A stretch of DNA of 63,204 nucleotides, counting the filler, from Octopus bimaculoides (Eukaryota), in the NCBI RefSeq assembly GCF_001194135.2. It is 5 parts of 4 records of this genome, joined end to end, with 100 filler letters (N's around TTAATTAATTAA, not from the genome) between each part and the next. Parts side by side here need not be neighbours in the genome. Positions count along the whole stretch, not along the records: positions 1 to 10,937 come from NC_068986.1; positions 11,038 to 25,649 come from NC_068996.1; positions 25,750 to 42,806 come from NC_068981.1; positions 42,907 to 53,748 come from NC_068985.1; positions 53,849 to 63,204 come from NC_068986.1. One strand, 5' to 3'. The position numbers were made by a program, and so were the translations under genes. This document shows, piece after piece, positions 8,706-61,806 of this stretch (position 1 is the stretch's first letter; every line of letters begins with the position of its first letter). Below the pieces are notes generated by a model. It was given only the letters and a program-made list of their open reading frames with translations, was not told where the DNA came from and searched no databases.

Positions 8706-8825
8706 TATATATATATATATATATCAGAGTAAGCGCATAAGTGTGAAACAAGGTGGAAGAAAATAGTACTCGAATACCGGAGGTAGAGTAATATGTTTTA
8801 TTAATAAAGCCGCAAAAGCATAACA

Positions 8826-8871
8826 AAAACTGTTACTCAGAGTTTCATGTTCCCGTTCGTCGGACAGTTTT
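8826..8871 (-). ncRNA. minimal type I hammerhead-like motif (U4C core variant)
   Basis: Minus strand aaaactgt-CCGACGA-acgGGAAcat-GAAA-ctcTgag-TA-acagtttt: 8-bp stem I, GUA cleavage triplet, stem III with a 1-nt loop. Confidence 0.6.
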
Positions 8872-8885
8872 GAAGGTTGAGAATT

Positions 8886-8923
8886 CTGTCCGACGAACGG
8901 GAATGTGAAACTCTGAGCAACAG
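8886..8923 (+). ncRNA. minimal type I hammerhead-like motif, mirror copy with U16.1 mutated to C
   Basis: ctgt-CCGACGA-acgGGAAtgt-GAAA-ctcTgag-CA-acag. Confidence 0.5.
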
Positions 8924-8959
8924 TTTTTAATGATGTTATTGCAGCTTCATTAATAAAGC

Positions 8960-9010
<51 letters not shown>

Positions 9011-9683
9011 TGTATGTATGTATGTATGTATGTGTGTGATTGTGTGTTTGTGACAACAATATGTATTGTGTCCCTCCAATATATATTAGATTGTAATTAC
9101 TTAAAGCATGGTATCGTTTGGTTTGCTGGAAATTCTAAACGTCGTGTGCAGTCATCGTGTTACCGATCGAACGAGCCCCGGTTCGGGAGATCTCTCCTTC
9201 TTTCGAAGGAGAGGCGTATGTTGAATTCTGCGAATTCAACACATACCTACATACACATAAACATGCATGCACACACGCACATACATACATAAATGCGCAT
9301 TCACACATACGAACTCTCTCACACACACATACTTATGCAGACACACTTCGGCATCAAAAAATGGAAATTATAATATAGGATACTACGCTATTATTAATGA
9401 AAAATGAATGAGAACGCTAGAAAAACAAATGTAAATTTAAATAATACAAATAAATAAATTAATTAGTTAATTACAAATGCTAAATTATCAAAGCTCACAT
9501 CAGAGAAAAGTTGTGGTTTGCTTACAAAATCACGGAGTACGTGACACCTTATAATTATTTCGTGAGTAGCATGAAGGTAAAAGGCCCCGAGCTACAGACA
9601 TCTTTATGTAAATATAGTGTTATGATAGTTTGGATAAACGAACTGAGAAGAAGAGATAGACCTGCTCTCACCCTGTACACCCA

Positions 9684-9727
<44 letters not shown>

Positions 9728-9879
9728 NNNNNNNNNNNNNNNNNNNNNNNNNNNNNNNNNNNNNNNNNNNNNNNNNNNNNNNNNNNNNNNNNNNNNNNNN
9801 NNNNNNNNNNNNNNNNNNNACACGCACGCACGCACACACACACACATTATATATATAGTCTGTTAAAGTCTGTCATACC

Positions 9880-57384: not shown

Positions 57385-57650
57385 TTTGATGATACCATAA
57401 CTGTTTAACATCTTGTTAAACAACCTCAGAGATTTACAAGGAGACTTCAAAAAGTATCTAGACAAATTGCCATCTGAAATCCCAGATGAAAAACATTGCG
57501 ACAGGAGGCACAAAGAAGAGCAGTTCCCTCCAACTTGCTTCTTCAGTACAGAAAGGAGACCCAAACATACTGAAAGGTGGTGTGCCAGCATAGCCTCAAG
57601 CACTTGGCTGAAACCAATAAAAGATAGATACACAATTAGATCAAATTAAT
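57385..57650 (+). mobile_element. CR1/L2-group LINE 3' fragment
   Basis: LFNILLNNLRDLQGDFKKYLDKLPSEIPDE resembles the CR1-group ORF2 C-terminus. Confidence 0.6.
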
Positions 57651-59569
57651 CTCTATAAAAAAAATGACAGAATGACCAAAGCTGGAACACTGATAAGTTG
57701 TTCAGGGGTTACATAGAAACAACAACAAATATAGCTTAGTGTAATGTTAGTTTAGTCCAATTTCTGTTTGGAGTTCTGAGTTTAATCTTAGAAAAACACT
57801 TAACTTCATTTCAATTGTTTAATTCTTAAACTGCGTCCTTGCCAAATGTTCTTCAACAAATGACTTGGCCATGCCAAGCAATTTGAAATATAATTTTAAA
57901 GAATGAGTAGGAAAGAGGAAAGTAAGACAACTTAATGCAAGGATGCTTTCTGCATGAAAAACAAACAGTTAAGTTGATCTTAACTACATATTTAATATAG
58001 TAAGCAAAGAACTTTTAAGTAATGACAATTACACTCTTAGTGAAGAAAAAAATTCTGATCAAGAAGCAACTCTGGAATTTAAAATCATTAAAACTGATTT
58101 AGAAAAATAGAATGGAGGCTTGCAATGATAGCTAAGTCTGATTTTGGCAAGTAGGGTTACAACTCTGGATGCATTTCAGTGCAATTAGACCACTTTAAAT
58201 AAGCGAGTCAGTGCTTATTCAGTGAAAATCTTTACATTTCTCAGTCATCTAGGCTTTGTTAAGGACATAGCAGAGTTGTTAGAACTTCAGATAGCATACC
58301 TGGAAATATTTGTTCTGGCTCTCTGCACTACAAGTTCAAATCCTGCTGAGATCAATGTTTCTTTTCATCTTTTCAAGGTTGGAAAATAAATTACCAATCT
58401 AGTGCTGGGGTTGATTCTTCTCTTTCCCTTTTTTTACTCTCAAAGAAATTGGCTATGGTCAGACTTGAAGCAGGATGGAATCTACCAGGTTAAAATTGTC
58501 TACAACATCCCATAAGTTATGCCAGAGATCTCATGGCCTCACGAGGAGTTGAGGGCCTAAGGAATCATTGAAAAGGTTTAATTACACCAAAACATGACTA
58601 GAATTATCACTGTACTTGTCAGCAATCAGGCTTACTCTTCATTGATACTCATACCCTTATTCAATATTTATTAATTTAAATTCTAGATTCATTATTAAGT
58701 ATGTTAGCATGCACTTAACTAGTCAAAATATAATTAGCCAAAGCATGTTGCACAGAGAGATATTTCATCTAGGAATTATTTAAATCTAACACAATGTAAA
58801 AATAGATCAGACTGTTTCTCAGGTGAAAATAATAGTTCATATAAGATTCAACTGGCAATAGCCCAGCTCATCTCACTGATAACATAATAGAACAATCTAA
58901 TAAGCAATAATATAGGTCATACATTGCTAGTCTCACAAGAACTTTGAACAAAATATCTTGCAGTATATTATTCTGCCCCTTTATGTTCAGAGTTCAACTC
59001 TTGCTAAGGTAAACTTACCTTTTAACTTTTCAAGGTTGGTAAAATAAAGATCTAGTCAAGTACTGCCAGGATTCTTCAAGCATAATACTACAGCTTAGAA
59101 CCCAAATAAATCTTTGTAATGTTTAGACTTTTCAGGGTGAATGGGAGTGTAAACCCTAATAGCCACAATATTTGTGTGAGGAGCAGTTTCAGTTGATATC
59201 AATTTATTTGTACATGTACATGCATGCCAGGTAAGAATCTTTTTTTTTAAAGGAAGACTGACAGTTGCCCATGCATGCAATTCTCCCCCTCAACATTACC
59301 AATGTAATGGAAAGTTCACTGATTTGGACTGATACAAGGAAAAGTTCACTGACTTGGACTGATACACCTTGGCAACAGTGACATAACAGGCAATGCTGTT
59401 AGAATGCAAAAGATTGGAGCAGATACCAGAAAACACATCTTGTATCCATAGTTTTCATTGGGTACACTATATGGAATTTCTACCAGGCAAGTCCTGTCTG
59501 TTTTCCTGATAACTAGAACTTTGGCTTTTGCTAAGTTGACTTTAAGGTCCTTTGATTTGAATTTTTCAG

Positions 59570-59810
59570 GTGTGACTGTGTGGTTAAGAAGTTTGCTTCC
59601 CAGCTACATAGTTTCAGGTTGAATCCCACTGTGTGATACTTTGGGTAAGTATCTTCTACTAGAACACCAGGCTGATCAAAGCATTATGAGTAGATTCGGC
59701 TGACAGAAAGTGAAAAAAGTGCATGTATGTGTTACTGTTCCCTTGGCTTGACATCATGTAACAACTATATGCAGGTGTCACTGTCCTTCATTTTCATTCT
59801 TCCATGAAAA
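59570..59810 (+). mobile_element. SINE family B-related, diverged
   Basis: ggtgtgactgtgtggttaagaagtttgcttccc...gaatcccactgtgtgatactttgggtaagtatcttctact. Confidence 0.7.
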
Positions 59811-61197
59811 CTAACAGATGCTGAAAGCTTGAGAATAAAGGCAGGACAGAAGGCATTAACCTTAATAAAAGATGTGCTCAAGCAAAGTTGCACAAAACTC
59901 TATGCACCAGTCTCTTCAATAGTACTGTCCTACCTGCACTTTTATATGAAGAGGGAAAAATATTGATTGACTACAATGCAAAGAGCCATGGAAAGACTTA
60001 TGCTAGGAATATCATTGTGAGAGCATATCTGAAATGAGGTAATTCAAGGAAGATCAGAGTGAATGACATGATTGCAGAAAACCAATAACAAATACCCTTT
60101 TAGTTTAGACATAGTTTCTCTCTACACTTCTGTACCGGCTCTCCCGGCCGTCGATATCTTCATAGACTACATCACATCCTTATCTCCCCCCACTTTCTTC
60201 CTCATTTTTTCCCGTCTCCCCTGCAATGTCCTCCTTCCCATCTTCCCCTTCATCTTCTCTCACCTCTTCATCCATCAACCTCCAGCTCTTCGGCCTTACA
60301 CCCTCGGACATACCATTATAGTTAGTAACACCTATTTCCAATATAATGGTGTGATTTACAGACAGACTTCCAGCCTACCTATGGGATCTAGCCTTTCAGG
60401 CCTGCTGGCCATCACGTACATGGATAAGCTAGAACGTACAGCACTCAATACCTGCTGCTCATGCATCTTCTTCTCCAGGTACATTGATGACATCTTTATC
60501 ATCATGTCTTCCAGGGATGAGGCCATTAACATACACCAGACCTTCAATAACATTGACATAAACATCAAATTTGAGATTGAACATCCAGATGAATCCAGAA
60601 CCCTCTCTCTACTCGACTTTCAACTCAGGATCACAGAGGAAGGCTCCATATTTACCAACTTCTACAGAAAAGCCACTAGCAAAAAACTTTCGTCCACTAC
60701 CAATCAGCCTTACCCACTAGAACCAAATCTGCATACGTGAGAAACGAGATTGCACGTATAAACAACAATTGTAGTGAAGTGACCGACAAAGCTGTCAACA
60801 TCAAACGGTTCCTCAAAGACCTAACTTGAATGGCTACACACCATCTATAGCCAAACAACAGTGCGTAAAGAACATCAGGGTCAATAAACCCTGGAAGAAC
60901 CATTGTACTCTCAAGTCTGGTACATGCTTCCTAAAGCAACCACATTTTGACAACAGAACTACTGCAGCAATGCAACACACAGTCCACAGGGAAGGACTCG
61001 ACATACAGATAGTGCACACCGGCCTTTCCCTGATAAAAGCTCTGTCCAAGAACAACACCTCTCACTACTCTGAGGAGTACACATTATTGAACTGTTCCAT
61101 TAATGACCCTGAATTGTGCCAGAGGACCTATGTTGTATACAAAATCATCTGTAGCAAATGTGGCACATCCTACATAGGAAGCACAAGAAAACTGCAA

Positions 61198-61492
61198 ACC
61201 CATGCCGTTAGCACATAAAAAGCACCATCCGAACATGGCCAATGTCAGTGCCGCTTTGATTGGCTTCCGTGCCAGTGGCACATAAAAAGCACCATCCAAT
61301 CATGGTCGATGCCAGTTCCTCTGGTCTCTATGCTGGTGGCACATAAAATGCACCCACTACATTCTTGGAGTGGTTGGTGTTAGGAAGGGCATCCAGCTGT
61401 AGAATCAGATTGGGGCCTTGTGCAGCCTCCTGGCTTCCTTGACCCCAGTCGAACAGTCCAACCCATGACAGCATGGAAAACGGACGTTAAAC

Positions 61493-61522
<30 letters not shown>
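61198..61522 (+). mobile_element. RTE-tail-type repeat inserted into the PLE endonuclease
   Basis: Three gcacataaaa(a/t)gcacc units, gttaggaagggcatccagctgtag, and ggacgttaaacgatgatgat tail. Confidence 0.85.
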
Positions 61523-61523
<1 letters not shown>

Positions 61524-61763
61524 CAAGCAGACACTTCTATGAAGAAACAACTGCAGAAATGCCAGACCCAGAATTCACAGAGCACATCAAGGCAACACAG
61601 AAGAACAGGGGCAACCTTAGAATCTCTGAGGCCATCCTCATACACAAAAGGGAACCAAATATCAACAACAGAAGAGATTTACAGGAAGCTAGCTGGTTGC
61701 TATAGCAACATCCTTCCACGCATGTCCACTTCACACACACGCACATCGGCAACATTTGTTAAT

Positions 61764-61806
61764 TTCTTGAAAACGGGGTCATAATCCTGAAATATTGAAT
61801 GTAGGG
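61764..61806 (+). ncRNA. decayed hammerhead-like motif in the PLE 3' terminal repeat
   Basis: ttc-TTGAAAA-cgggg tcataa tcct-GAAA-tattGaatg-TA-ggg. Stem III approximates ACATT-G-AATGT with a 1-nt loop; core mutated. Confidence 0.45.

Follow-up and report, generated by a model that had tools for sequence, protein, structure and literature searches.

Arkhipova et al. (2013, PMC3846280) and Craig et al. (2021, PMC8557442) describe insertions of endonuclease-bearing (EN+) Penelope-like elements (PLEs) as consisting of an inverted, 5'-truncated pLTR with a tail on one side. In Schistosoma mansoni, dual hammerheads, one on each strand and separated by about 100-700 bp, were linked to truncated PLEs (PMC4209133). 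The class as such is already known, and the layout presented below is already in print for other animals in these three papers.

A self-comparison within the window (the whole stretch of 63,204 nucleotides of Octopus bimaculoides DNA that was analysed) revealed five foldbacks, P1-P5, and all five palindromes which the earlier note had put forward as a minimum number were recovered:

8791..8963, unstranded: P1 foldback with an 18-nt spacer between arms 8791-8867 and 8886-8963, which are about 83% alike; then (TA)n
16689..17303, unstranded: P2 foldback, arms 16689-16950 and 17041-17303 (97% alike; spacer of 90 nt, TG-rich), then (TA)33
29799..30363, unstranded: P3 foldback, arms 29799-30077 and 30085-30363 (86% alike, 7-nt spacer), then (TA)n
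35171..35443, unstranded: P4 foldback, perfect palindrome at the centre (35312/35313), arms with 5 mismatches and an 11-nt indel, no spacer
44992..45096, unstranded: P5 foldback abutting a gap, arms 86% alike, with a hammerhead-like motif represented by its 3' half only

TA runs of at least four units, 76 of which were present in the window, adjoined P1-P4 and not P5, in agreement with the earlier count of four palindromes next to (TA)n. TA was located at the outer ends of P1-P4 and the centres contained no TA run. The (TA)n flanks hide any target-site duplication, no empty allele was observed, and P2, P4 and P5 lie near assembly gaps. Hammerhead-bearing foldbacks amounted to four per 56 kb of called sequence; foldbacks without a hammerhead were also found in the same window (19939-20369, 27373-27556, 49766-50090 and 54082-54230).

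P1-P4 are very probably one-off integration scars of several PLE families, each consisting of two 5'-truncated copies of the hammerhead-bearing 3' end that meet head to head in a TA repeat. The inverted 5'-truncated copy placed head to head was observed for P1-P4 in the window, and variable junctions were detected in the P2 and P3 families. The membership of P5 in this group is unconfirmed, and its missing core and TA flank are a point against reading it as a PLE scar.

The arms contained the following motifs, together with a lone relative and the window's own PLE:

8826..8871, minus strand: left hammerhead-like motif of P1 with a U4C core, 8 bp in stem I and 4 bp in stem III (1-nt loop), found by descriptor
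8886..8923, plus strand: P1 right motif, U4C core, U16.1 lost, by eye
16743..16826, minus strand: intact left hammerhead of P2, with a canonical core and a palindromic stem III that has no loop
17166..17249, plus strand: right hammerhead of P2 with a canonical core; stems II and III each contain one private mismatch
29811..29873, minus strand: P3 left hammerhead, canonical core, stem I of 6 bp, stem III of 4 bp with a 1-nt loop
30290..30350, plus strand: P3 right hammerhead, canonical core, one stem III mismatch, partly by eye
35217..35264, minus strand: left motif of P4, in which the U3-A8 core has an additional A6C change, by eye
35350..35397, plus strand: right motif of P4 with a U3-A8 core, a GUC site, 7 bp in stem I and a basal U.U pair in stem II, by eye
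53559..53749, plus strand: lone non-palindromic P2 relative (71% alike); its hammerhead at 53606-53697 is intact and the copy ends in TA
60090..61703, plus strand: Penelope-like ORF remnant, 5'-truncated and frameshifted, with RT followed by a GIY-YIG-type endonuclease region
61764..61799, plus strand: minimal hammerhead, U3-A8, about 60 nt after the ORF stop, with (TA)n at 61935

A full type I hammerhead had been claimed for every arm. This was not borne out: the CUGANGA core was present in 4 of the 10 arms (both of P2 and both of P3, with a stem III mismatch in each right arm); the minimal type I motif in the terminal repeats of P1 and P4 was a variant, with CCGACGA (U4C) in both P1 arms and, by eye, UUGACAA (the U3-A8 covariant) in the right arm of P4. 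Inspection of P5 by eye found stem II-GAAA-AGCGCU-A only, with no recognisable core and no adjacent stem I. The outward orientation of the motifs from the centre and the stem III sequences quoted previously proved correct. A strict descriptor gave four matches (P2 left, P2 right, P3 left and the lone copy at 53606-53697) relative to a mean of 0.02 and a maximum of 1 in 100 dinucleotide shuffles, and a relaxed one gave five relative to a mean of 0.73 and a maximum of 3 in 100 such shuffles. No hammerhead was present among the 150 of 163 Rfam matches listed (E<=10), which were mostly microsatellite-driven miRNA. In free-folding predictions of single arms, P2 left and 53606 formed the hammerhead stems and P3 and 61764 did so in part; P1, P4 and P5 did not.

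The Penelope-like ORF remnant was interrupted by a repeat near 61300-61520. The motif at 61764, earlier regarded as decayed, fits better as a compact minimal hammerhead of the U3-A8 type. An alignment scan of contigs revealed 24 loci related to this ORF, four of which passed the descriptor, one of them (L006) with a U3-A8 core; the remaining 20, many of them short contigs, failed it. At L010 and L011, which are possibly one locus, a truncated RT-endonuclease ORF was preceded by an inverted hammerhead-bearing repeat. Among 55 candidates from a single-protein scan of metagenome contigs, no relative was found. P1-P5 showed no sequence match to the window PLE, and neither translation of the arms and tails nor tblastn with 20 PLE proteins linked them to an ORF, so the donors may be ORF-less; this is a point against the PLE-scar reading. 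With regard to the earlier reading of the palindromes as inverted pLTR dimers in TA repeats, the link to PLEs is supported.

Each of P1-P4 was extended on one side only, by 31-74 nt:

8724..8790, minus strand: P1 extension of about 67 nt, bounded by the left arm and the TA run 8706-8723
16635..16688, minus strand: P2 extension, at least 54 nt, abutting a gap
29725..29798, minus strand: P3 extension, about 74 nt
35140..35170, minus strand: P4 extension of 31 nt, bounded by the left arm and (TA)n 35119-35139

A one-sided tail of element sequence was indicated for P3 by contig depth and by loose ends at 29725 and 29785, for P2 by sequence and contigs, and for P1 and P4 from sequence only; the P1 extension is likely an element-derived tail. 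The P3 extension is family DNA which in the contigs of other copies ended in (TA)n. The first part of the P2 extension continued from the arm in seven contigs of one run (X7; loose end behind 17293). The P1, P2 and P3 extensions exceed the published tail of 30-40 bp, which is a point against the PLE-scar reading.

The tests on read contigs from public runs covered P2 and P3, both of which are members of abundant repeat families. Pieces of P2 were present in 20 of the 24 runs listed, and the family figures were drawn from 6 of the 20 runs holding part of it, with 1,493-2,028 contigs per DNA run. The majority letters of both families restored ribozyme stems II and III (for stem II of P3 right, 9 of 11 pairs as found and 11 of 11 with majority letters), and N7 was the only core position among the 16 family changes listed.

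Among the 24 loose ends listed for P2 (with 93 further ones), four joined reverse-complement arm pieces at four different places; no joints were present in the P2 contig listing. Roughly a third to half of the arm depth ran into the spacer, the right half of which (17005-17040) was common to many copies, and since region 16945-16999 was skipped as a repeat, a common P2 junction in the spacer is possible. The letter at 17068 was shared by both P2 arms and absent from >99.9% of the family depth, which fits copying from one template or arm-to-arm conversion.

The summed depth of the P3 family in run X1 fell from 39,000-65,000 at 29756-29821 to 1,300-2,200 at 29976-30085, a 5' truncation gradient which was weaker in P2. 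P3 contigs continued past the centre into other sequence at 30084 (16 in X1 and 10 in X14) and at 30091 (11 in X14). Among the 15 of 86 joints listed, four skipped from the left arm or centre to the right arm at different points, each represented by one contig per run at a depth of about 30-70; three of the four had short sides (20-27 nt) with the sequence between them not known. Nine 'opposite strand' joints are ambiguous, since the reference is itself palindromic. Record 6 of X1 was another head-to-head P3-family pair with a different centre. Because P3 continues past its centre and the fold-back points are varied and single-copy, the palindrome was likely created afresh with every insertion rather than being the unit that spreads.

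In the scar reading, the GIY-YIG endonuclease would nick TA-rich DNA, and the RT would copy RNA from near its 3' end and halt early. A second truncated copy would then be added in reverse orientation, through self-priming or priming from the other strand, so that both outer ends would be element 3' ends and one of them would retain the extra tail. Selection may preserve the hammerhead in the donor elements, probably for its role in processing tandem transcripts as a dimer, and the motif would decay in the resulting stumps. In read-through RNA, a stump is predicted to fold as a long hairpin in which the ribozyme is masked.

It is very unlikely that the palindromes are non-autonomous units spreading as such, i.e., MITE-like foldback derivatives of PLEs whose centre is fixed. 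The common right half of the P2 spacer and the rare letter in both P2 arms could be explained in this way; however, the P3 family passes the centre and other centres occur at single-copy depth, P2 shows several junctions, and the lone relative 53559-53749 is non-palindromic. The fixed ends and palindromic consensus of a MITE or foldback DNA transposon were not found in the P3 family, given its variable centres and several TA junctions. The non-autonomous palindromic units proposed earlier are not upheld for the P2 and P3 families, as the P3 family runs through its centre and P2 and P3 copies fold back elsewhere.

A second arm arising after insertion, by fold-back DNA repair or through another, independent insertion at that TA repeat, is highly improbable. 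Foldbacks without a hammerhead do occur in the window (19939-20369 and 49766-50090) and rare letters in both arms fit a DNA-level copy, whereas the mirror of P1-P4 ends at the element TA junction, sparing the tail and flank, the 3' ends point outward in all four and the centres lack a TA run.

The foldbacks can hardly be assembly artefacts, even though the short-read assembly is gappy, with P2, P4 and P5 near gaps, and neither the P2 centre nor the P3 centre was bridged by any of the contigs listed (for P3, 32 of 3,929 pieces). As argued in the earlier note, the arms are diverged, with differences at 40 of 279 positions in P3 (32 of them transitions) and 10 of 79 in P1; moreover, a contig of another study matched 29851-30070 at 220 of 220 letters with single-copy depth, and other contigs were themselves head-to-head pairs.

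That the palindrome is maintained as an RNA switch, alternating between a dsRNA hairpin and self-cleavage (the earlier note had suggested such switching), has next to no chance of being correct: one motif per strand, arms fully complementary across it and a hint of A-to-G changes in one run guessed to be RNA would suit it, but the ribozyme fold is predicted to cost 118 (P2) and 76 (P3) kcal/mol relative to the hairpin versus 0-2 kcal/mol in a single arm, the antisense arm is made first in a read-through transcript, a single motif per strand leaves no cis partner for a dimer fold, private core or stem lesions are present in P1 right, P2 right, P3 right and P4 left, and minimal hammerheads cleave poorly even as dimers (PMC4209133).

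Read as PLE integration scars, the stumps provide natural data on how PLEs make the inverted copy, with many junctions available, and the rare letter in both P2 arms points to one template. They would probably be mislabelled as MITEs in repeat annotation. They also provide natural data on the dsRNA supply for octopus hyper-editing. According to Porath et al. 2017 (PMC5625713), octopus is extreme in both dsRNA potential and editing, with its repeats left unannotated, and Penelope is heavily edited in lizard. In one guessed-RNA run, 113 of 136 P2-family contigs were less than 95% alike versus 522 of 2,028 in DNA, and A-to-G changes at 17179, 17249 and 17251 were absent from two DNA runs, which hints at A-to-I editing of the P2 family. 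PLE hairpin stumps could conceivably, albeit doubtfully, be a main source of the near-perfect dsRNA behind the extreme A-to-I hyper-editing of octopus transcripts. In a bolder version, the P2 family would itself be a short element with no ORF that relies on the enzymes of PLEs to be carried.

Metazoan non-LTR retrozymes (PMC7229834; bioRxiv 10.64898/2026.07.22.740005) reportedly share with these loci the short, ORF-less structure, the type I hammerhead and a proposed dependence on PLEs. They are head-to-tail tandem arrays of fixed units, whereas P1-P4 are head-to-head with variable truncation, and no head-to-tail hammerhead array was found at P1-P5 in the window. Relative to the metazoan PLE minimal type I hammerheads of Cervera and de la Pena (2014, PMC4209133), the motifs differ in the longer helix III (4 bp) of P1-P3, the long helix II of P2 and P3 and the U4C core of P1, a change known from a viroid (Perreault 2011, PMC3088659), where it reduces activity in vitro. 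Shared features are the short palindromic helix III, the U3-A8 covariant, the extra base after A9 in the 61764 motif and, as in S. mansoni, a hammerhead pair on opposite strands. Unlike in the EN+ PLE insertions of PMC3846280 and PMC8557442, both copies are here too short for any ORF, the tails are about 55-75 nt in three cases and the donor ORF was not found. The head-to-head inverted copies, the one-ended tail, the (TA)n targets and the palindrome at the junction (P4) are as in those insertions, and the P4 tail of 31 nt corresponds to that of Pen2a_Av.

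All five palindromes (P1-P5) claimed in the earlier note were found in the window sequence, with an arm similarity of 83-97%, and the outward orientation of their motifs was confirmed. The window DNA contains 6,973 N and many microsatellites.

Foldbacks and hammerhead sites in the window
8791-8963: foldback P1
16689-17303: foldback P2
29799-30363: foldback P3
35171-35443: foldback P4
44992-45096: foldback P5
53606-53697: lone P2 relative, one of the four strict-descriptor matches
61764-61799: U3-A8 minimal hammerhead, 3' of the Penelope-like element (PLE) remnant and followed by (TA)n

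The CUGANGA core attributed to every arm was present in both arms of P2 and P3 and missing from the others (4 of 10 arms in total). Both P1 arms carry a U4C core, P4 combines the U3-A8 covariant core with a basal U.U pair in stem II, and P5 possesses only the 3' half of a hammerhead-like motif. A strict hammerhead descriptor yielded four matches in the window versus 0.02 in 100 shuffles. No hammerhead was present among the matches listed (150 of 163) in an Rfam scan. The foldback feature is real and the first reading of it was somewhat overstated. Isolated CUGANGA...GAAAC half-motifs that do not satisfy the descriptor for stems I and III were located at 18388-18410 (+) and about 22385-22417 (-).

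The asymmetry of P1-P4 was overlooked in the earlier note. In each, TA terminates one arm and the other runs further, by 31 nt in P4, about 67 in P1, about 74 in P3 and at least 54 in P2, with a TA run after the extension in P1 and P4. Contigs of public runs revealed that the P3 extension is family DNA, (TA)n being met at 29725 and 29785 in other copies. The P2 extension was entered by seven contigs of a single run, which may be the source of the assembly.

The PLE remnant (60090-61703, +) contains an RT domain (PF00078), and its alignment to PLE-type proteins extends through the endonuclease region; its one homologue with a species name was an Octopus bimaculoides protein with 58% identity. 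No DNA similarity between the remnant and P1-P5 was detected in the window comparison. Among 24 related loci, four passed the hammerhead descriptor and the flanks of nine were viewed. In L010 and L011, possibly a single locus, an inverted repeat carrying a hammerhead precedes a truncated ORF and the direct copy of the repeat follows it, the same layout but with the ORF retained. They support a link to autonomous PLEs at the clade level and are not a donor of P1-P5. In another related locus, L005, short direct repeats break up the 3' end of the PLE (4431-4637), and its inverted hammerhead is situated some 700 nt 5' of the ORF match.

Further elements were noted in the window. A TA-flanked foldback at 54082-54230 has 48-nt arms and a 57-nt spacer; in its arms GAAG is followed by a stem III-like hairpin of 5 bp closed by a 1-nt loop, and a core is absent. 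This foldback is possibly a sixth stump whose truncation point fell within the motif. A SINE-like repeat without a hammerhead forms inverted pairs at 19939-20369 and 49766-50090; it has many further window copies (e.g., 539-744, 4342-4573, 16285-16453 and 22942-23182) and gave no tRNA call. An AT-rich foldback (27373-27556, 98%), also without a hammerhead, adjoins a gap. The four gap markers at 10938-11037, 25650-25749, 42807-42906 and 53749-53848 are identical, each consisting of TTAATTAATTAA with 44 N on either side. They are likely an assembly spacer, and the palindrome at 42778-42935 was rejected as false, being created by such a marker. A degenerate CCCTAA-like repeat (62725-62816) is internal to the scaffold.

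Other coding fragments in the window
36054-38277 (-): RT fragment preceded by gag/protease-like frames, judged by eye to be of LTR type
26322-26765 (-): Tc1-type transposase HTH (PF01498)
39169-39510 (-): LINE-like fragment without a Pfam match

Whether the palindromes spread as units was examined by comparing contigs of public runs with half of P2 and with P3 plus its left flank. Summed depth on P3, used for shape only and not as a copy number, was 39,000-65,000 at the outer end in run X1 and dropped to 1,300-2,200 close to the centre, with single contigs at a depth of about 30-55. Contigs passed the P3 centre into different sequence (16 in X1 and 10-11 in X14), and no piece bridging the centre was present among the contig pieces listed. 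Among 15 listed of 86 P3 joints, four skipped into the right arm at differing points and single-copy depth, nine were strand switches, unreadable since the reference is palindromic, one lay within a single arm and one went back. One 642-nt contig of the P3 family was a head-to-head pair with its centre elsewhere, and 29851-30070 was matched exactly by a contig from a different study. The P2 comparison skipped 16945-16999, and joints were not among the output listed. After a check by eye against reverse complements, four of the 24 loose ends listed could be read as fold-back junctions (17129, 17130, 17179 and 17189), one of them being only 9 letters long. P2 copies may nevertheless share a junction inside the spacer, as much contig depth reaches into it.

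Family-majority letters at 17180 and 17240 restored stems II and III of P2, N7 being the sole core position among 16 listed changes. In the right P3 arm, the majority letters of its family raised stem II from 9/11 to 11/11 pairs (40 of 145 changes listed). The hammerhead motif was thus kept in the donors and is decaying in the P2 and P3 copies. A letter at 17068 common to both P2 arms was absent from over 99.9% of family depth, and U4C is common to both arms of P1. A single position is slender evidence, but it fits one template or arm-to-arm conversion.

The proposed switch between hairpin and self-cleavage fared poorly in computed folds, where forcing the ribozyme stems cost 118 (P2) and 76 (P3) kcal/mol; in a single arm the cost was 2 and 0 kcal/mol, respectively. 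Each strand carries one hammerhead motif, and in read-through RNA the antisense arm is made first. The hairpin should dominate over the ribozyme fold in such RNA. Minimal hammerheads are described in PMC4209133 as cleaving weakly even as dimers. Run X16, guessed to be RNA and lacking DNA of the same animal, showed A-to-G changes at 17179, 17249 and 17251 (8-15% of depth). These had zero depth in X1 and X2, with one X7 contig at 17251. X16 also had one T-to-G change that no other run shared, and the changes listed for P2 included no T-to-C change specific to a run. The A-to-G changes give no more than a hint of A-to-I editing.

In the literature searched (few subscription journals, no Repbase), no cephalopod description was found beyond 235 hammerheads counted in the giant squid genome; with the same coverage, no palindromic non-autonomous class was found. 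The following sources describe related features: an inverted 5'-truncated copy, (TA)n as target and a tail of 30-40 bp (Craig 2021, PMC8557442); head-to-head PLE terminal repeats (pLTRs), palindromes at the junction, a tail of 31 bp and self-priming (Arkhipova 2013, PMC3846280); dual motifs on opposite strands, 100-700 bp apart, and the U3-A8 core (Cervera 2014, PMC4209133); two RT start sites linked to the tail, and in vitro insertion that does not require the ribozyme (Frangieh 2024); U4C and A6C (Perreault 2011, PMC3088659); and the dimer model, restated in a review (PMC6765202). The foldbacks are likely a cephalopod example of this known PLE insertion product.
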